From positions 1 through 21,173 of the IMG/VR virus record IMGVR_UViG_2660238548_000014: 21,173 bases of DNA; one strand, given 5' to 3'. The notes below the pieces were generated by a model that saw nothing but the letters and a program-made list of their open reading frames with translations, did not search any database and was not told the origin of the DNA. The stretch comes from a virus (Duplodnaviria; Heunggongvirae; Uroviricota; Caudoviricetes). How positions within the stretch are numbered: the first letter of the stretch is position 1; every line of letters starts with the position of its first letter. The translations under genes and the position numbers were made by a program. Of the stretch, positions 2,007 through 20,925 are shown in pieces.

Positions 2007-2297
2007 TCATCTTTTAACTCCATATACCGCCAATACCCGTTTCATCGCTGCACTCTGGCGACACTCCTTAAAAATCAGGTTCGTGCTCACCTTTCCTTCC
2101 CGTTCTTCCCTGGTAGCAAACCGGTAATACACCGTTCGCCAGACCTTACCTTCGATAACCAGAAGACCTGCCCGTGCCATTTTAGCTGCGGCCTGATTTA
2201 TGCTGGTTACTGTTGCGCCTGTTAGCGCGGCAACGTCCGGCGCACAGAAGCTATTATGCGTCCCCAGGTAATGAATAATTGCCTCTTTGCCCGTCAT
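2007..2297 (-). CDS. ren: Ren protein
   Basis: 96-aa ORF immediately after P with an ATGA start/stop overlap. Sequence MTGKEAIIHYLGTHNSFCAPDVAAL... matches my recollection of lambda Ren. Confidence 0.7.
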   Translation of the reverse strand: MTGKEAIIHYLGTHNSFCAPDVAALTGATVTSINQAAAKMARAGLLVIEGKVWRTVYYRFATREEREGKVSTNLIFKECRQSAAMKRVLAVYGVKR

Positions 2298-2995
2298 ACA
2301 CTTGCTCCTTTCAGTCCGAACTTAGCTTTAATTTCTGCGATCTTCGCCAGCGCCTGAACACGATTTAGAGGTCTGCCGCCCATGACAGGAAGTTGTTTTA
2401 CTGGTTCAGGTATCGCCTCACCACGGTTAATTCGCGCTGTCATACAGGTCAGTTCATCGGCAGCCTTGCGTCGTAATTCCGCGTCAGTCAGCGCATTGGC
2501 CCGCATGTTCTGGTACAGGTTGGTAACCAGCCAGTAGTGCGCGTTCGATTTCCACGGATAAGACTCTGCATCCGGATACAGGCCTCGCTTCCGGCAATAC
2601 TCGTAAACCATATCAACCAGCTCGCTGACGTTTGGCAGTCCGGCGATAACGGATGCTTCTTCCCGGCACCATGCAACAAACTGCCCGGGTGATGGAAGAA
2701 ATGGTCGATTCTGCCGACGGGCTACGCGCATTCCTGCGTTAACCTGTTCCATCGAGGTGATCCCGTTTTCCCGGAAAGCCAGAACCCACTGGCGGCGGAT
2801 TTCGTTCACTTCGTTCTGGTCACGGTTAGCCAGGCTCGCCGGGAAAGTTGCCAGTAACTGGCTGAACACACCGTTGATGATCTGCGCTACCTGCTGTACC
2901 TGCGGCTTTTCGTCGTACTGTTCCGGCATGTTGTTGGCGATCCGACGCATCTGCTCACGGTCAAAGTTAACCATCTGTGCGGCGATGTTTTTCAT
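2294..2995 (-). CDS. P: replication protein P (DnaB helicase loader)
   Basis: 233-aa ORF MKNIAAQMVNFDREQMRRIANNMPEQYDEKPQ... matches lambda P in length and sequence as recalled. ATGA overlap with the O stop. Confidence 0.9.
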   Translation of the reverse strand: MKNIAAQMVNFDREQMRRIANNMPEQYDEKPQVQQVAQIINGVFSQLLATFPASLANRDQNEVNEIRRQWVLAFRENGITSMEQVNAGMRVARRQNRPFLPSPGQFVAWCREEASVIAGLPNVSELVDMVYEYCRKRGLYPDAESYPWKSNAHYWLVTNLYQNMRANALTDAELRRKAADELTCMTARINRGEAIPEPVKQLPVMGGRPLNRVQALAKIAEIKAKFGLKGASV

Positions 2996-3930
2996 AGATC
3001 CACCCCGTAAATCCAGTCTGTGTTTGTCAGGTCGAGTTTTGGTTTGCTGGCTGTCACGCCTGCCTGTTGCTTGTTACGGTTGATTTCGAGTTGGGTCCAC
3101 TTATCGCGGAGTTTGGCCGGGCTCAGCACGTTACCGGACCAGAAGTTGTCCTGGCATGCCCAGCGGAACAGCACGCACATGTCGCGGTGGTTACGTCCGT
3201 CACGTTCACGCATCAGGCGGATATCGTTAGCCCACCCTGCAAAATTCGGTTTTCTGGCTGATGGCGCGATGGTCTTCACCATGTCAAACATCCACTCTGC
3301 GGCGGTCAGGTCTTCTGCTGTCCCCCACTTGCTGCCGCTCTGAATTGCAGCATCCGGTTTCACCACAGAAAGGTCGTTTTCTGGCTGGTCAGAGGATTCG
3401 CCAGAATTCTCGGACGAATAATCTTTTCTTTTTTCTTTTGTAATAGTGTCTTTTGTGTCCCCCTGTTTTGAGGGATAGCAATCCCCTAATTTGAGGGATG
3501 TTTTATCCCTCGTTTTAGGGGATTTTCCCTCGTTTTGAGGGATGTCCCTCATTTTAGGGGAACCTCCCTCGTTTTGAGGGATGCACCATTCTGAGATGTT
3601 TTTATTTGGTCCAAACATGCCGCCTTGCTGCTTGATAATATTCATTCTGACGAGTTCTAACTTGGCTTCATTGCACCGTTTGACAGGTAACTTTGTAATC
3701 TCGCTAAGTTGAGAATCGGTGATTCTGTCCATTGGTTTATTCCACCCATAGGTTTTACGCAGAATGGCAAGCAGCACTTTAAACTGTCGCTTGGTCAGAT
3801 CTGCGCCTGAATAAGCCTCAATCAGCATATTTGATAGTCTGGCGTAACCATCATCGAGATCTGCCACATTACGCTCCTGTTCGGCAAAGTTACCTCTGCC
3901 GAAGTTGAGTATTTTTGCTGTATTTGTCAT
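2992..3930 (-). CDS. O: replication initiator protein O (312 aa; contains ori)
   Basis: MTNTAKILNFGRGNFAEQERNVADLDDGYARL... matches lambda O, but is 312 aa versus the 299 aa I recall, with an extra GSPKMRDIPQNEG-type segment that coincides with extra iterons. Confidence 0.9.
   Translation of the reverse strand: MTNTAKILNFGRGNFAEQERNVADLDDGYARLSNMLIEAYSGADLTKRQFKVLLAILRKTYGWNKPMDRITDSQLSEITKLPVKRCNEAKLELVRMNIIKQQGGMFGPNKNISEWCIPQNEGGSPKMRDIPQNEGKSPKTRDKTSLKLGDCYPSKQGDTKDTITKEKRKDYSSENSGESSDQPENDLSVVKPDAAIQSGSKWGTAEDLTAAEWMFDMVKTIAPSARKPNFAGWANDIRLMRERDGRNHRDMCVLFRWACQDNFWSGNVLSPAKLRDKWTQLEINRNKQQAGVTASKPKLDLTNTDWIYGVDL
3458..3581. repeat. ori-lambda-type iteron array (six palindromic ~18-bp O-binding repeats)
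   Basis: Six tandem copies of the TCCCTCAAAACGAGGGA-type palindrome (shown reverse-complemented) inside the O reading frame. The AT-rich stretch at 3421..3457 follows on the same side as in lambda ori. Confidence 0.85.
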
Positions 3931-3940
3931 AATGACTCCT

Positions 3941-4017
3941 GTTGATAGATCCAGTAATGACCTCAGAACTCCATCTGGATTTGTTCAGAACGCTCGGTTG
4001 CCGCCGGGCGTTTTTTA
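3941..4017 (+). ncRNA. oop: oop antisense RNA (overlaps cII 3' end)
   Basis: GTTGATAGATCCAGTAATGACCTCAGAACTCCATCTGGATTTGTTCAGAACGCTCGGTTGCCGCCGGGCGTTTTTTATT matches lambda oop as recalled. It ends in a GC hairpin plus T-run and has a -10 like CATAAT at 3928..3933. Confidence 0.75.
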
Positions 4018-4374: not shown

Positions 4375-4584
<210 letters not shown>

Positions 4585-4672: not shown

Positions 4673-5389
<717 letters not shown>

Positions 5390-5501: not shown

Positions 5502-6341
5502 ATGAAGAATGGTTTTTATGCGACTTACCGCAGCAAAAATAAAGGGAAAGATAAGCGCTCAATAAACCTGTCTGTTTTCCTTAATTCTCTGCTGGCTGAT
5601 AATCATCACCTGCAGGTTGGCTCCAATTATTTGTATATTCATAAAATCGATGGAAAAACTTTTCTCTTTACCAAAACAAATGACAAGAGTCTGGTTCAGA
5701 AGATAAATCGCTCTAAAGCTTCAGTTGAAGATATTAAGAATAGCCTCGCAGATGACGAATCATTGGGATTCCCATCTTTTTTGTTTGTTGAAGGCGACAC
5801 CATTGGTTTTGCCAGAACTGTTTTCGGGCCGACCACATCCGATCTGACAGATTTTTTAATCGGGAAAGGAATGTCATTAAGCAGTGGAGAGCGCGTTCAG
5901 ATAGAGCCACTGATGAGGGGAACCACCAAAGACGATGTTATGCATATGCATTTCATCGGCCGAACAACGGTGAAGGTAGAAGCCAAGCTACCTGTATTTG
6001 GCGATATATTAAAGGTCTTAGGGGCAACAGATATTGAAGGGGAGCTTTTTGACTCATTGGATATAGTCATTAAGCCAAAATTTAAAAGGGATATAAAAAA
6101 GGTTGCCAAGGATATTATTTTTAACCCGTCACCTCAATTTTCAGACATTAGCCTGCGGGCAAAAGATGAGGCCGGAGATATTTTAACAGAACATTATCTA
6201 TCAGAAAAAGGCCATCTCTCAGCGCCTCTGAACAAGGTCACCAATGCTGAGATAGCTGAAGAGATGGCATATTGCTACGCAAGAATGAAAAGTGATATAC
6301 TGGAATGTTTTAAAAGGCAGGTGGGCAAAGTTAAGGATTAA
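5502..6341 (+). CDS. rexA: RexA (abortive-infection/exclusion protein)
   Basis: 279-aa ORF directly downstream of cI, as in the lambda immunity operon. Sequence matches my recollection of RexA. Confidence 0.85.
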   Translation: MKNGFYATYRSKNKGKDKRSINLSVFLNSLLADNHHLQVGSNYLYIHKIDGKTFLFTKTNDKSLVQKINRSKASVEDIKNSLADDESLGFPSFLFVEGDTIGFARTVFGPTTSDLTDFLIGKGMSLSSGERVQIEPLMRGTTKDDVMHMHFIGRTTVKVEAKLPVFGDILKVLGATDIEGELFDSLDIVIKPKFKRDIKKVAKDIIFNPSPQFSDISLRAKDEAGDILTEHYLSEKGHLSAPLNKVTNAEIAEEMAYCYARMKSDILECFKRQVGKVKD

Positions 6342-6356
6342 TTATCAGGAGTAATT

Positions 6357-6791
6357 ATGCGGAACAGAATCATGCCTGGTGTTTACATAGTAATAATTCC
6401 TTACGTTATCGTAAGCATTTGCTATCTCCTTTTCCGCCACTACATTCCTGGTGTTTCTTTTTCAGCTCATAGAGATGGTCTTGGGGCGACATTGTCATCA
6501 TATGCAGGAACCATGATTGCAATCCTGATTGCTGCCTTGACGTTTCTAATCGGAAGCAGAACGCGCCGACTGGCCAAGATTAGAGAGTATGGGTATATGA
6601 CATCGGTAGTTATTGTCTATGCCCTTAGTTTTGTTGAGCTTGGAGCTTTGTTTTTCTGCGGGTTATTGCTTCTTTCCAGCATAAGCGGCTACATGATACC
6701 CACTATCGCCATCGGCATTGCCTCTGCATCGTTCATTCATATATGCATCCTTGTTTTCCAACTATATAATTTGACCAGAGAACAAGAATAA
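6357..6791 (+). CDS. rexB: RexB (membrane ion-channel component of Rex exclusion)
   Basis: 144-aa multi-pass hydrophobic protein following rexA. Length and position match lambda RexB. Confidence 0.85.
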   Translation: MRNRIMPGVYIVIIPYVIVSICYLLFRHYIPGVSFSAHRDGLGATLSSYAGTMIAILIAALTFLIGSRTRRLAKIREYGYMTSVVIVYALSFVELGALFFCGLLLLSSISGYMIPTIAIGIASASFIHICILVFQLYNLTREQE

Positions 6792-14032: not shown

Positions 14033-14248
14033 ATGGCTCTCAACATTGATTGCGTACCTATAACGACATGGTGTCGAGATATGGGAGAAACGCTGGATGC
14101 CGTTAACAAACGGTTACAACGTGGAGTATGGAAGGAAGGGGTTCAGGTTTTAAATGTGGAAGGCTCCAAAGAACGATGGATTGATTTAACTGAGGTTTCA
14201 AAATGGGCGAGAAAAAACAAATATCCTTATCACTCCCAAGAGGAATAA
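14033..14248 (+). CDS. xis: excisionase-like protein
   Basis: 71-aa basic protein immediately upstream of, and overlapping, the integrase gene, with a GAGGT RBS. The position is canonical for xis; no family assignment was possible. Confidence 0.5.
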   Translation: MALNIDCVPITTWCRDMGETLDAVNKRLQRGVWKEGVQVLNVEGSKERWIDLTEVSKWARKNKYPYHSQEE

Positions 14249-15375
14249 CAATTCGTCAATACAAGAATTGCTCTACATTAGTTGTAACCTTCACATATAA
14301 AGGGGTTCTTTGCAGAGAACCCTTACCCAGGCTGGAAGCTAACGCAAAGGGGATTAAGTATGCTGAACGGCTTCTAGGAGAAATAAAAAACCAAATCAGT
14401 GATGATTCATTCGATTTTTCAAAATACTTTCCAAACTCTAGGAAGCTGGCATTATTTGGAATGGTAAAGAAAAATAAAAGTGTGAGAGATTACCTAGATG
14501 AGTATCTGGAAATTTGCAAAAACAGAAAGTTATCACCTTCAACAATAAATGGATATGAAAAATGCGTATCTGCATTATCTGAACTACATAAGCTACATGT
14601 TGTTGACCTGACACCAGCAATATTAAAAAAATGGATCTCAAAAAGAACAACAAAACTTAAGACCATAAGAAACAATCTATCATTTTTAAGAAGTGCAGTA
14701 GATGAAGCGGTCACTGACGGACTTATAACGATAAATCCTGTAAAACTGGTTAGTGCAAGTAGATACCATGCGGTTAACCATACAGCCAATACTGATGATT
14801 ATGAAGTGGATCCATTCACACCAGCAGAGGCAACAGCTATCTACAACGCCTGTCTTTATCAGGAATGGAGAAATCTTTTTTGTTTCGCATTCAATACAGG
14901 CCTACGAAGCTCAGAATTATGTGCATTGCGTTGGTCTGATATTGATTTTATTGGGCATACCGTTCACGTACAGGTCGCTTCTGTCGTTGGTGTGATAAAA
15001 GGAACCAAAACAAAAGCTGGTACCAGAAAAGTTGAATTAAACAATGAAGCTATAATGGCATTACAGGCCCAGAAATCATTTACGATGATGAGAAGTGATT
15101 TTGTATTCAGTGATCCAAAAACACGCAAGCCGTGGGCTAATTCAGCTGCGATTCGTAAGAAAGCCTGGCTCCCGACTCTTAAAAAGGCCGGAGTTCGTTA
15201 CCGCAATCCATATCAGACTAGACATACATTCGCTACACGGCATATCAGCCAGGGGGCAAATTTATTCTGGCTTGCCGGTCAAATGGGACACAAAGGACCA
15301 GAAATGCTGTTTAGACACTATGGTTCATATTTATCAGAATATGATGGCAAGACTGCGATCTCAGAAGTAATCTAG
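14203..15375 (+). CDS. int: tyrosine-type site-specific integrase (prophage int)
   Basis: 390-aa ORF with the tyrosine-recombinase C-terminal catalytic region (..RHTFATRHISQGANLFWLAGQMGHKGPEMLFRHYGSY..). It overlaps xis and is followed by the att core. Confidence 0.85.
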   Translation: MGEKKQISLSLPRGITIRQYKNCSTLVVTFTYKGVLCREPLPRLEANAKGIKYAERLLGEIKNQISDDSFDFSKYFPNSRKLALFGMVKKNKSVRDYLDEYLEICKNRKLSPSTINGYEKCVSALSELHKLHVVDLTPAILKKWISKRTTKLKTIRNNLSFLRSAVDEAVTDGLITINPVKLVSASRYHAVNHTANTDDYEVDPFTPAEATAIYNACLYQEWRNLFCFAFNTGLRSSELCALRWSDIDFIGHTVHVQVASVVGVIKGTKTKAGTRKVELNNEAIMALQAQKSFTMMRSDFVFSDPKTRKPWANSAAIRKKAWLPTLKKAGVRYRNPYQTRHTFATRHISQGANLFWLAGQMGHKGPEMLFRHYGSYLSEYDGKTAISEVI

Positions 15376-15603: not shown

Positions 15604-15700
15604 ACGTCTATTGTCGTCCAGTGAGAATTGCTGAGAACTACGAGTTATGGCACCCTGAATGGGACCCACTAAGAAGGGTCCAAAAACCGAGGGTCCCAAA

Positions 15701-16930
15701 ATGGCAAAAATCGCTAAGAAGCTCACTGACACTGAAATCAAAAGCACCAAGCCAGCCGATAAAGAAATCAACTTGTTTGACGGTGATGGTCTGATTCTAC
15801 GAATCGCTCCTTTGGCGAAAGGAGGCAAGAAAAATTGGTATTTCAGGTATGCAGTACCAGTGAGCAAGAAAAGAACCAAAATGAGCCTTGGGACATATCC
15901 TCACCTTACCCTTGCAAGAGCCAGAGCCTTACGTGATGAATATCTCTCCTTTCTGGCAAATGGTGTTGATCCCCAAATCCATAACAACGATAAGGCGAAG
16001 GCATTAAAGAGTGCTACTGAGCACACTCTCCAAGCCGTAGCGCGGAAATGGTTAGATGAGAAGGTAAAGACATCAGGTATCTCACAAGACCATGCAGCAG
16101 ACATCTGGCGCAGCTTAGAGAGAAATGTCTTTCCCGGTCTGGGTAATGTCCCTATCAATGAGATCCGACCTAAGCTCTTAAAACAACACCTTGATCCTAT
16201 TGAGCAACGAGGCGTATTGGAAACTCTACGCCGTATCATTTCACGTCTGAATGAAATCTTCCGGTGGGCAGCTACTGAAGAACTTATTGAGTTCAACCCG
16301 GCTGACAACCTTGGTCAAAGATTCAGTAAACCAAAAAAGCAAAATATGCCTGCCCTTCCCCCAAGCGAATTGCCAAGGTTTATGGAATCTTTGACGAATG
16401 CGTCAATCCGGTTGGAAACACGTATGCTAATTGAATGGCAATTGTTGACATGGGTTCGTCCGGGTGAAGCCGTTCGCGCAAGGTGGTCTGATATTGATAC
16501 AACCAACAGCATTTGGAACATTCCTGCTGATTTCATGAAAATGAAAAAGCTTCACAAAGTTCCTTTGAGTAAAGAAGCTTTGCGCATCCTTGAATTAATG
16601 AAATCAATAAGTGGGCATAGAGAATGGGTTTTCCCCAGCATAAAAGCGCCTCTTAATCATATGCATGAACAAACAGCCAACGCAGCTATCATCCGAATGG
16701 GGTTCGGAGGCGAGCTTGTAGCTCACGGTATGCGTTCTATTGCACGAACAGCGGCAGAGGAGTCTGGTAAATTCAGAGCTGAAGTTCTTGAGGCAGCGCT
16801 TGCCCACTCGAAAAAAGATGAAATTATCGCAGCATACAATCGTGCAGAATATCTGATAGAGCGACAGAGTTTGATGCAATGGTGGAGTGATTACGTTCAA
16901 GCTCAAAGATCAAATGCTCTGGTAGCCTAA
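15701..16930 (+). CDS. intA: P4/CP4-57-type tyrosine integrase
   Basis: The N-terminus MAKIAKKLTDTEIKSTKP...DGDGLILRIAP..WYFRY resembles the arm-binding domain of IntA-type integrases, and the C-terminus has VAHGMRSIARTA and ALAHS. It lies just downstream of the ssrA 3' end, as intA does in K-12. ATG at 15659 is an alternative start. Confidence 0.85.
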   Translation: MAKIAKKLTDTEIKSTKPADKEINLFDGDGLILRIAPLAKGGKKNWYFRYAVPVSKKRTKMSLGTYPHLTLARARALRDEYLSFLANGVDPQIHNNDKAKALKSATEHTLQAVARKWLDEKVKTSGISQDHAADIWRSLERNVFPGLGNVPINEIRPKLLKQHLDPIEQRGVLETLRRIISRLNEIFRWAATEELIEFNPADNLGQRFSKPKKQNMPALPPSELPRFMESLTNASIRLETRMLIEWQLLTWVRPGEAVRARWSDIDTTNSIWNIPADFMKMKKLHKVPLSKEALRILELMKSISGHREWVFPSIKAPLNHMHEQTANAAIIRMGFGGELVAHGMRSIARTAAEESGKFRAEVLEAALAHSKKDEIIAAYNRAEYLIERQSLMQWWSDYVQAQRSNALVA

Positions 16931-17456: not shown

Positions 17457-19205
17457 TTATGGTAGCATCATTGATACATAATCCACACCAATCCTTGAGC
17501 TATACTGAGACGCTATAGCCTGATATCTTTCTGCATAACCAGTTCTCAGTTGAGATTTAAGTTTGAGTCGGACAGGAACATTTTGCACGTTGCCATCCAT
17601 ATTACTTAAAAACACGGCAGAAATAATATTTTTTTCTTCGCCATCAACTGTTGTTCCATGATTCAACACCACCATATAATCAACAACAGGAAGCGTTTTA
17701 TCCCCTTCGAAAATAGAGAGATATTTTCTTTGATTTTTATGCATTACATATATATATTTCGAATATTCAGCAAATGGCAATGCTTTACTCTGACTGGCGT
17801 TAAAAAGCTCCAGAACTTTAATGAGCCTGTGCGGACTTAATCTTACATGGTGAGGGTCGTTACCCTGAGTAGGAACCAAATCACATGCCGCAGATACACA
17901 TAAATACCATTTGTTCGACTCTGTATCAAAGAAAATAGTGCCAGTAGAAATATGACCATCTTCAAAATTCTTTGAAGACAAATTCATATTTAAAGCATGA
18001 TACATTTCGTGATAAGTATCATTATTTGATGGCAGATCCATTTTTGAAGAGCAATATTGGAGCAATGCAGCAACTCCGCTGTTAGCGTATTCATTTGAAT
18101 AGCTATCAAAAACACTTTTGATAAATTCATCCAGCGTATTATTATTTTTAAGTCTTTGATAAAGCTCTTCTGATAAATTACCAAATACAAAGTCAATATT
18201 TCTACATCTAATATCAGGCGAGTCTGATTTTAATATCTCATTTAACCACGCAGCTTGACCGTAATGATCGTTAGCCAAATGATTTACAAAAGATAAAGCC
18301 TCAGCTTCGATTGCATTCTGAATTTCAGATTTTATTAACTGATAATAAGATGGTTTCCATTCAATGAGAGAATCATTGAGAGTTTGCCAAATCCTATCTC
18401 CATCGTTTTCATGATCATCTTGAACCTTATGAAATAGGGAGACAAAGATATTACCACATTGAATCCATTTTACTCCGCTTTCATCACCCCGAATGACATT
18501 GCCAGATGTGTTGCTAGAAATAATTGCATTTCTAGACACAGCATATTCTGCAATCATTTTTGCAATGAAGTTTTTATCCTTTTGATCCTCCAACACAGCA
18601 TCATCATGTATTAATCTTTTAATTCTTCTACAAGGCTTACTGTCTTTAATATAGGCTATTGTTTCATCTCTTGTGAGAGCTTTATTACCATTATCATTTA
18701 AGTTCGGTAATACAACGTCTTCCCAATAACTTTGGACATCTTCATTATCGTAGTCAATGATCAAGCTGTTGATATCCAGAGCACCTTTGAGAGTCGATGA
18801 TATCTGCATCCAAACCGTTTCTAAATTCTCTCTAGTATATATTACAATCATATTTAAATGATCGGAGTCTTTCAAATCTTGTAATAGTTTAAGTGTTTTA
18901 TCAGGTGCATTATTATCAAGATGATAATCTACAATAATAAGATCTGATTTTCTAATCCGATCCACATCGAAATTAACAGAACCATTGTCAACATCACAAA
19001 TCATATTTTTAGATTGAAAAAAGCTCTCAAGAGTAGCGGCTCGTTTAGATGAGTCAATTTTGTTGTAGTCTAAATCAACTTCGTTATTCAACGCCCTGAT
19101 TGATTCAGAATACGTCAGAAAATCGTCATCAATCATGACAACGGAACGAATTGCATTTTCGCAGAAAGTTTTCTGGACAAGAGAATTATAATTTGCCACT
19201 GTCAT
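17457..19205 (-). CDS. receiver (REC)-like domain protein with ~430-aa C-terminal domain of unknown function
   Basis: The likely start is the ATG at 19205 (GGAG 7 nt upstream), 1 nt after the upstream stop. The N-terminus has receiver-like elements: SVVMIDDD, DLIIVDYHL (candidate phospho-acceptor Asp) and NMIVIYT. The remainder has no motif I recognise. Confidence 0.65.
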   Translation of the reverse strand: MTVANYNSLVQKTFCENAIRSVVMIDDDFLTYSESIRALNNEVDLDYNKIDSSKRAATLESFFQSKNMICDVDNGSVNFDVDRIRKSDLIIVDYHLDNNAPDKTLKLLQDLKDSDHLNMIVIYTRENLETVWMQISSTLKGALDINSLIIDYDNEDVQSYWEDVVLPNLNDNGNKALTRDETIAYIKDSKPCRRIKRLIHDDAVLEDQKDKNFIAKMIAEYAVSRNAIISSNTSGNVIRGDESGVKWIQCGNIFVSLFHKVQDDHENDGDRIWQTLNDSLIEWKPSYYQLIKSEIQNAIEAEALSFVNHLANDHYGQAAWLNEILKSDSPDIRCRNIDFVFGNLSEELYQRLKNNNTLDEFIKSVFDSYSNEYANSGVAALLQYCSSKMDLPSNNDTYHEMYHALNMNLSSKNFEDGHISTGTIFFDTESNKWYLCVSAACDLVPTQGNDPHHVRLSPHRLIKVLELFNASQSKALPFAEYSKYIYVMHKNQRKYLSIFEGDKTLPVVDYMVVLNHGTTVDGEEKNIISAVFLSNMDGNVQNVPVRLKLKSQLRTGYAERYQAIASQYSSRIGVDYVSMMLP

Positions 19206-19206
19206 A

Positions 19207-20925
19207 TTAGAACTCCACTCCATTGAACTGGATCACAAAATTAGCGCCATCTTTTATTAAATAGTTATCGCCTTCATCAGGTTCTAAATACCATATTTTA
19301 TGATGTGCAACAGCAAGGTTTTCTCGACATAGATACAGACCTACCCCATGTCCATTTGCTCTTTTGCTATAAAATAGTTCAAATAGTCGCGGGATATCAT
19401 CGGTATCAATTGCCGGACCAGAATTTGCTATGATAACCAAAGAATTCACAAAACCAATCTTTATGAGCCTATTATTTGACAGACTGACCCAATACATTGC
19501 ATTGTTGATAATATTAGTAAAAACAGGATAGATCCTTGATGGTATATCTGTTATTGCGATTTGCTTAAACTCTTCACTAAATTCAATAGTTATTCGTTGC
19601 CGTTCGAAACGCTCCCCAAAGAACTTCAGGACATAATCCATGATATTTTTTCCAGTTATTCTCTGCCTGGATTGATAACCTGATATTTTCAAAGGTGATA
19701 AGAAACGTATTTGTTGAGTAAGCGATCTGTGAGCATTTAACGCCAATGAAAAACCAGGGTGTTCTTTTACAGAAGTAGGAAGAGAGTTTAGTCCTCTGGT
19801 TACCATAGAATCCATTTCTTCAAGTTCATGAGATATTATCTCAACACTAATACCTAACTGTGCAAGCGCGTTTAAACTTTTAGCTTTTTCTTCAAAATAT
19901 GAGCGTTCTTCTTCAGATAATGAGAATGCTGAATCTAAGTTTATACCTTCAAATAATCTATCGAGACCTTTTATTATTGATTGATATTTGAAAGTTAGGG
20001 TATCAACTGACTCAACATATAAACTATCGAGCAAATTAAACACATTTTCAATTTGTGAATCATTATCTATTGAATCAACAACTGATATAGTTTTAGCATA
20101 ATAATCACTTCGATCAACCTTTATTTCATCGGCCCATTTTTTTAAAAGAGAATGTATCTTCTCCTCTATCGTGTTATTAAACTTAGTTAGTTTAGAATTA
20201 ATAATACCTTGATTTTTTTCAAGGTGATTTTTCGCTGACAATGAAGGCTCAAGTTTATTTAATTCAGAATCAAGTTTATTAATTGCTAACTTCATTTGTA
20301 GAATATACGCAGAGAACTCATTAAATTTATCTCTGTAGTCTCTATATTTCTCTTCATACATTCCAAGTTTTGGAGGTTTGATAGGCGTTTTAATTTCACT
20401 GCGCAACGCATCTAAGTTTGTAAGATCACTGTCTATAATTTTAAGATAGTTTAAATCTAACGAACCATCAGTTTTATCAAGCTTAGTTTTCAGCCTTTTA
20501 ACAGCCTCCAAGGAAGCATCAAGAACTGGTGTCTGATTCTTCAAAGCTTCTGAAAAACTTTTTTGTGTTGATTTTCGAGCTTGTTGTTGAGCAGATTTTC
20601 TTAACTCTTTTTCACGCTTAACTTGTTCTAAAAGCTCTTTACGGTCATCAGAACGTGAACCAAAAAATCTATCAGCAAGTTCAGTTAACAAATTAGATAT
20701 AATAGTTTTCAGTTCTCTTGCAGCCTGGTTTCTTATGAATCCCTCTCTCCCCGACTTATCTTTCAGCTCTTTATTACTGGATTGAGTAATTCCAATATAA
20801 CCAAAAATCCTTCTATTAGACCAATAATATCGCCCTGCATTCCATGAACGTCTTTCTTCTATCTGGAAGAAATCATTATCTACTCGACCATAAGGTAATA
20901 CTCTCAAGCTATCCCTAAAAATCAT
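19207..20925 (-). CDS. cytoplasmic histidine-kinase-like ATPase; 5' end probably truncated by IS3
   Basis: H-box-like EIISHELEE (His codon at 19828..19830), N-box RIYPVFTNIINNAMYW, G1/F-box IIANSGPAID...LFELFYS and G2-box GHGVGLYLCREN, in canonical order and spacing. No transmembrane segment. The frame stays open upstream of the first ATG as far as 21046, with no start codon. Confidence 0.7.
   Translation of the reverse strand: MIFRDSLRVLPYGRVDNDFFQIEERRSWNAGRYYWSNRRIFGYIGITQSSNKELKDKSGREGFIRNQAARELKTIISNLLTELADRFFGSRSDDRKELLEQVKREKELRKSAQQQARKSTQKSFSEALKNQTPVLDASLEAVKRLKTKLDKTDGSLDLNYLKIIDSDLTNLDALRSEIKTPIKPPKLGMYEEKYRDYRDKFNEFSAYILQMKLAINKLDSELNKLEPSLSAKNHLEKNQGIINSKLTKFNNTIEEKIHSLLKKWADEIKVDRSDYYAKTISVVDSIDNDSQIENVFNLLDSLYVESVDTLTFKYQSIIKGLDRLFEGINLDSAFSLSEEERSYFEEKAKSLNALAQLGISVEIISHELEEMDSMVTRGLNSLPTSVKEHPGFSLALNAHRSLTQQIRFLSPLKISGYQSRQRITGKNIMDYVLKFFGERFERQRITIEFSEEFKQIAITDIPSRIYPVFTNIINNAMYWVSLSNNRLIKIGFVNSLVIIANSGPAIDTDDIPRLFELFYSKRANGHGVGLYLCRENLAVAHHKIWYLEPDEGDNYLIKDGANFVIQFNGVEF

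Follow-up and report, generated by a model that had tools for sequence, protein, structure and literature searches.

A six-iteron origin of the Stx-phage type in a prophage with lambda immunity

Early-right operon and surroundings

The window, by which we mean the whole analyzed stretch of 21,173 nucleotides from a Caudoviricetes record (IMGVR_UViG_2660238548_000014), covers the early-right operon of a lambdoid prophage; in the ORF list, this operon runs on the minus strand. The genes of the operon and the junction discussed below are as follows.

2007 to 2297: ren
2294 to 2995, minus strand: P, helicase loader working with O, 233 aa (Pfam Phage_lambda_P, PF06992, E = 3e-61)
2992 to 3930, minus strand: O, replication initiator, 312 aa, containing the origin (ORF list and Pfam Phage_rep_O)
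About 3900 to 3960: mosaic junction in the cII-O/oop region (binned identities)
4375 to 4575: cro (cII is also present)
4676 to 5389, plus strand: cI

Both O and P are intact ORFs. The genes rexA and rexB are likewise intact, with strong PADLOC matches at 5502 to 6791 (+), and the prophage thus pairs the lambda Rex exclusion system with a replication module of the Stx-phage type. An Rfam scan of the whole window returned no family at the gathering score and thus missed OOP RNA and the nut sites. The window extends only into the nin region and does not include the late region in which stx would be located; a phage encoding Shiga toxin is the customary, though not a strictly defining, carrier of the six-iteron origin.

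Binned identities change abruptly at the junction. On its higher-coordinate side, cII, cro, cI, and rexAB are 100% identical to lambda and are not of the VT1-Sakai or 933W immunity types, while O, P, and ren on the lower-coordinate side are 100% identical to VT1-Sakai. By these identities, the window is a clean mosaic in which lambda immunity is combined with the replication module of VT1-Sakai. Lambda-like cI (96 to 98% identity) was found in 5 of the 55 IMG/VR six-iteron loci with enough flanking sequence, and the pairing of lambda immunity with six iterons is uncommon, not unique. This exact combination was absent from the best 40 matches in 5,426 complete E. coli genomes, all of which were ordinary lambda lysogens and 39 bp shorter. 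Since that search joins two pieces, coverage alone does not separate four- from six-iteron forms, and the combination may lie lower in the E. coli match list.

In the phage collection, the closest overall match was CP-1639, which covers just 40% of the window. Two tyrosine integrase genes with different types of arm-binding domain lie in tandem at 14203 to 15375 (+) and 15659 to 16930 (+), an arrangement that suggests that the prophage inserted beside another integrative element; the CP-1639 record labels the adjoining element a remnant integrative element. Beyond the prophage integrases, a gene at 17457 to 19223 (−) encodes a 588-aa protein with a Response_reg_2 receiver domain and overlaps a second gene, at 19207 to 20925 (−), for a 572-aa protein with HEF_HK and HATPase_c domains. 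PADLOC gave no match for this kinase/receiver pair at the right end of the window. The pair may be a conflict or defense-type two-gene module on the neighboring integrative element.

Architecture of the origin

The original prediction held that the origin inside O has six iterons where lambda has four and that a duplicated pair accounts for the longer protein. A degenerate iteron pattern located six sites on the plus strand, at 3459 to 3475, 3482 to 3498, 3506 to 3522, 3526 to 3542, 3545 to 3561, and 3565 to 3581. Below, the iterons are numbered as in the GenBank record of 933W, with the names used by Kozlowska et al. (2020) in brackets.

3421 to 3458, minus strand: A/T-rich unwinding tract, 76% A+T, identical to lambda
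3459 to 3476, minus strand: iteron 6, equal to lambda ITN4, adjoining the A/T-rich tract
3482 to 3499, minus strand: iteron 5, equal to lambda ITN3 with a one-base Stx-type difference (A for G)
3506 to 3523, minus strand: iteron 4, equal to lambda ITN2
3526 to 3543, minus strand: iteron 3 (1′′), equal to lambda ITN1
3545 to 3562, minus strand: iteron 2 (1′)
3565 to 3582, minus strand: iteron 1 (1)
3545 to 3583, minus strand: 39-bp block without a lambda counterpart, encoding O residues 117 to 129, IPQNEGGSPKMRD

Chance repetition was rejected as an explanation, since the degenerate pattern matched 7 times in the window, always in the iteron block, against 0.21 expected, and none of 100 shuffles reached 7 matches. 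A repeat search independently recovered the iteron array and a 39-nt unit repeat at 90% identity. Read in the orientation of O, the iterons are spaced 20, 19, 20, 24, and 23 bp from center to center, and in a test for hyphenated dyad symmetry their arms were complementary at 3 to 6 of 7 positions. All six iterons and the A/T-rich tract lie inside the ORF at 2992 to 3930 (−), placing the origin within O. The sequence features of a lambda-type origin are present here, namely, the iteron consensus, an adjoining A/T-rich tract, a Phage_rep_O initiator, and then a P-type loader. The span first proposed for the origin, 3421 to 3581, includes the A/T-rich tract as well and ends one or two bases before the last iteron does.

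Alignment with lambda (NC_001416) opened a single gap of exactly 39 bp in lambda, opposite 3545 to 3583 of the window, and the iteron block otherwise differs from lambda by one base. The lambda reference record annotates four iterons, so the count of six against four stands. The 39-bp block is a tandem copy of the next unit, 3506 to 3544, which it matches at 35 of 39 positions; its spacer is GGT where the next unit has AAA, and a central T replaces C. The two units begin with the same 19 nt, which makes the placement of the block ambiguous by up to 19 nt. Of the two distal iterons, iteron 1 has no lambda counterpart at its site and is identical in sequence to lambda ITN1, and iteron 2, absent from lambda, differs from lambda ITN2 at one central base and is preceded by the GGT spacer. 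The duplicated pair had been described as the first two iterons, which is correct in the orientation of gene O; on the plus strand they are the last two.

The protein sequences agree with this picture. O of the window aligns to the 299-aa O of lambda with a 13-aa insertion at residues 117 to 129 and 99% identity elsewhere, which bears out the predicted lengths of 312 and 299 aa and the in-frame nature of the insertion, and excludes that lambda itself has six iterons and a 312-aa O. In O, IPQNEGGSPKMRD is followed directly by its near-copy, IPQNEGKSPKTRD. The Phage_rep_O domain (PF04492, E = 1e-35) occupies residues 22 to 115, and the insert starts two residues past it, in a segment rich in S, K, D, P, and G. 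Compared with the lambda origin, then, the site inside O, the iteron consensus, the A/T-rich tract, the O and P families, and the four proximal iterons at 20/24/23-bp spacing are shared, one ITN3 base apart; the difference is the 39-bp unit, without which lambda has four iterons and a 299-aa O.

As single-stranded DNA, the region from 3455 to 3590 (−) is predicted to form nested inter-iteron hairpins at −36 kcal/mol (z = −8.0), compared to −21 kcal/mol (z = −5.3) for the lambda array. Stronger folding is to be expected of an array with more palindromic units. It would be of consequence only if cruciforms or hairpins play a part as intermediates, a role suggested for them in the sensing of the lambda origin by the Lamassu defense system (PMC12663957), whose LmuB subunit is enriched around lambda iterons during replication (PMC12663957).

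Correspondence with Stx-type phages and the proposed role of the distal iterons

By megablast, the DNA of the O gene is 100% identical to that of VT1-Sakai (AP000400) and 98.6% identical to that of 933W and many other Stx-converting phages. Six features, "ori iteron 1" to "ori iteron 6", are annotated on the same bases in GenBank for both 933W (AF125520) and VT1-Sakai (AP000400). The aligned origin region is identical to that of 933W, in which the additional 39 bp likewise lie promoter-proximal and supply iterons 1 and 1′. Direct checks confirmed both that the extra 39 bp are homologous to the unit of iterons 1 and 2 and that the 933W and VT1-Sakai origins agree here. The same six positions, the same 39-bp unit, and a 312-aa O are shared by the Stx-type phages VT1-Sakai/Sp15, P27, 933W, H-19B, and BP-4795, from which the origin itself shows no difference. 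We are highly confident that the locus is the six-iteron lambda-type origin known from Stx-type lambdoid phages, recombined with lambda immunity in a prophage. The six-repeat origin is real, but it is already known, annotated, and biochemically studied, and in that sense ordinary.

Kozlowska et al. (2020; PMC7466680) devoted a study to the Stx origin and described its six iterons, compared with four in lambda, and the 13 residues added to O. In P27, O further differs from that of lambda by G17E and L37I (PMC7466680); O of the window carries both of these changes, without S282G, and is thus of the P27/VT1-Sakai type. Binding by O and O/P-dependent replication were demonstrated experimentally for P27/933W sequences (PMC7466680), whose iteron region, as aligned for 933W, is identical to that of the window. 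In footprints, O of lambda, P27, or 933W strongly occupies only the four iterons nearest the A/T-rich tract (PMC7466680). Nevertheless, the distal two iterons are required for replication of a P27-derived plasmid, and mutation of distal iteron 1 or 1′ abolishes transformation by that plasmid (PMC7466680). Stx O proteins were also found to bind more weakly than lambda O, a "space barrier" role was proposed, and the dependence on DnaA and on transcriptional activation differs from that of lambda according to the authors and earlier work that they cite (PMC7466680). These experiments, done on the same sequence, agree with the expectation that O-some assembly and replication control are influenced by the number of iterons, and the plasmid assay of origin function proposed along with it has, in essence, already been published with the P27-derived plasmid (PMC7466680).

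One detail of the published mutants deserves comment. When we translated primers 29 to 32 of Table 1 (PMC7466680), the iteron 1 mutant proved truly synonymous, whereas the iteron 1′ mutant, ATGAGGGAC to ATGAGTGAC, replaces an Arg of O with Ser, contrary to the paper's statement that the protein is unchanged. Evidence for a role of iteron 1′ as DNA is therefore weaker than stated.

These experiments bear on whether it is the protein that matters, with the iterons incidental: a linker longer by 13 residues could alter the spacing of the DNA-binding and P-binding domains, the packing of the O-some, and host-factor dependence. The position of the insert directly past the Phage_rep_O domain, in its S/K/D/P/G-rich segment, is in keeping with such an effect, as are the proposed space barrier and the weaker binding of Stx O (PMC7466680). 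However, the synonymous iteron 1 mutation kills plasmid replication with the protein unchanged (PMC7466680), and weaker binding could equally be explained by G17E and L37I, which lie in or near the DNA-binding domain. We regard this explanation as decidedly improbable.

A mechanism can be outlined from lambda, in which O dimers bind the iterons through their N-terminal domain and bend the DNA into the O-some, the O-some together with negative supercoiling opens the adjacent A/T-rich tract, and the C-terminal part of O recruits P-DnaB (PMC7466680, PMC6022878). At a six-iteron origin, the core complex would comprise the four iterons adjoining the A/T-rich tract, as the occupancy published for P27/933W suggests (PMC7466680). 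The two distal iterons, weakly occupied, would serve as auxiliary sites that raise the local concentration of O or stabilize the O-some, as the authors of that study proposed (PMC7466680). A longer O linker may loosen the packing of the O-some, and the substitution of GGT for AAA, which breaks an A-tract between iterons 1 and 1′, may add to the weak occupancy. O consists of two domains joined by a flexible linker (PMC6022878). Of three small in-frame deletions in the lambda origin region, two lie in the A/T-rich tract and still permit complementation by O, and the third, which removes ITN4, yields an O that is not active in trans (PMC6022878). Tolerance of such deletions, none of which lies at the site of the insert, partly explains why gain or loss of a unit is tolerated by the coding sequence. 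Whether the extra pair is needed thus depends on context, since four iterons suffice for replication of lambda and three reportedly do as well (Moore et al. 1981, as cited in PMC7466680). By analogy with the P27-derived plasmid, we propose that the distal pair would act as auxiliary sites at the origin in the window.

The plasmid origins of R6K, pSC101, and P1 also consist of repeated initiator sites beside an A/T-rich unwinding element, and the number of sites can modulate initiation. Their initiators (Rep, pi, or RepA) are unrelated to O, and their iterons usually lie outside the initiator gene. The lambda origin is not known to be controlled by handcuffing.

Distribution and variation of iteron number

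We surveyed the six-iteron form with a 79-nt query across the junction, which only an origin with the extra unit can cover in full; for four-iteron origins, coverage is 75% and identity 93%, as predicted. The six-iteron junction was found in 361 of 5,426 complete E. coli genomes, 704 of which have any lambda-type left origin end, and in 72 of 106 matching phage records. A scan of IMG/VR for exact flanks returned intervals of 39 nt (four iterons) in at least 120 contigs, 78 nt (six iterons) in 70, and 117 nt (eight iterons) in one, every interval being an exact multiple of 39. No origin with two or three iterons (0 to 30 nt between flanks) was found in the IMG/VR scan. Overall, about 7% of complete E. 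coli genomes have a six-iteron origin, and these origins occur with more than one type of immunity. Short-read assemblies can miscount tandem 39-bp repeats, and the six repeats might in principle be an assembly or sequencing artifact. This reading is refuted by the survey: the same structure recurs in the 361 genomes, in 72 phage records, among them 933W and VT1-Sakai from the Sanger era, and in 70 IMG/VR contigs, and O has an uninterrupted reading frame, leaving practically no chance that the repeats are artifactual.

Rarer states of the array were also recovered. The complete genome of E. coli 03_3013 (L239, NZ_CP074958.1, 2183 to 3160) has eight iterons in three tandem 39-bp units, within an intact O of 325 aa (WP_111305069.1) that is followed by intact P and ren. 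Eight iterons are also present on an IMG/VR draft contig (L006, 10112 to 10258), in which O is interrupted just after the A/T-rich tract and the contig stops; the interrupting sequence is one that we take to be an IS629/IS1203-type end. In E. coli 2013C-3264 (L004, NZ_CP027544.1, about 600 to 700), a hybrid four-iteron origin lies in an O of 299 aa; its single unit combines the GGT spacer typical of the extra unit with the C found in iteron 2. From its sequence, this hybrid looks like a deletion product, such as would be left when the two units of a six-iteron origin undergo unequal crossover or slippage. Neither a mention of eight iterons in a lambdoid phage nor the hybrid deletion product was found in the literature searched. 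The series of four, six, and eight iterons corresponds to O of 299, 312, and 325 aa.

In a distant O lineage (about 53 to 61% identity), a prophage of Pantoea stewartii has six iterons (L237, 1825 to 1965) and its relative in Trabulsiella guamensis has four (L235, 1825 to 1910), the difference being a 57-nt in-frame block. The two-iteron expansion in Pantoea stewartii is independent of the 39-bp unit. Changes in iteron number have thus occurred repeatedly, each of them preserving the reading frame of O, and the 39-bp unit behaves like an in-frame copy-number repeat giving four, six, or, rarely, eight iterons.

Four iterons at 20/24/23 spacing were found in O relatives of Pantoea eucrina, Leclercia, Pseudescherichia, and Siccibacter (51 to 78% protein identity). 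Since distant true relatives of O keep four iterons, four is the ancestral number and six is derived, a polarity that comes from about ten informative true-relative loci, the species-level genome survey being largely swamped by lambda DNA in unrelated assemblies. O of lambda itself (94 to 95% identical to O of the window, mostly owing to the 13-residue gap), with the exact four iterons of lambda, occurred in assemblies of Shewanella, Neobacillus, Bradyrhizobium, Leeuwenhoekiella, and Helicobacter (L197 to L212, L218 to L223, and others), often on contigs of roughly 48.5 kb at about 1× coverage. Such matches are almost certainly contamination of public assemblies by lambda control or vector DNA.

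In our reading, the extra pair arose by tandem duplication of the 39-bp unit that holds iterons 1 and 2. The 13 residues added in this way do not harm O, since 39 is divisible by three and the unit falls within the linker past the DNA-binding domain. Nevertheless, 4 of the 39 bases differ between the two units, compared with 97 to 100% identity to lambda in the flanking parts of O, and a simple duplication in the recent past does not account for all of this. Perhaps the duplication is of long standing and deletions later gave rise to lambda-type origins again, or perhaps the rate of change was higher in the extra unit; with 10% divergence between units set against such similar flanks, the age and direction of individual events are not readable from the locus alone.

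These observations also bear on whether the extra pair is a selectively neutral in-frame tandem duplication, produced by slippage or unequal crossover and tolerated in the flexible linker with no role in replication control. In favor of neutrality, only four iterons are strongly occupied in vitro on a six-iteron template (PMC7466680), four suffice for lambda, forms with four, six, and eight iterons all occur with intact O genes, and the hybrid four-iteron origin indicates that a unit can be lost by recombination. However, the synonymous mutation of distal iteron 1 abolished replication of the P27 plasmid (PMC7466680), the iteron consensus is intact in the extra unit of almost all of the approximately 74 six-iteron loci examined, and the six-iteron form is frequent rather than sporadic, with 361 genomes carrying it. 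We therefore consider neutrality unlikely and retain the proposal that the distal iterons would act as auxiliary sites. A more speculative idea is that the promoter-proximal half of the origin is a 39-bp repeat that changes by unequal recombination or slippage and acts as an evolvable dial for initiation strength. We think it doubtful that such a dial operates; if it did, iteron number might affect the visibility of these phages to defenses such as Lamassu.

By itself, the finding of six iterons changes nothing, as it re-derives a textbook-adjacent fact about Stx-type lambdoid phages. The type of origin has practical relevance because replication of Stx phages drives toxin production and host-factor dependence differs from that of lambda. 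What we add is only mildly new: a series of four, six, and eight iterons in which the longest form has an intact O, a hybrid origin that looks like a product of deletion, and, in Pantoea, a further expansion that arose independently. The modest value of this population view is that it places the origin in the window as one state of a 4/6/8 series that moves only in whole 39-bp in-frame steps, and that series provides natural allelic material for testing the role of the extra iterons.
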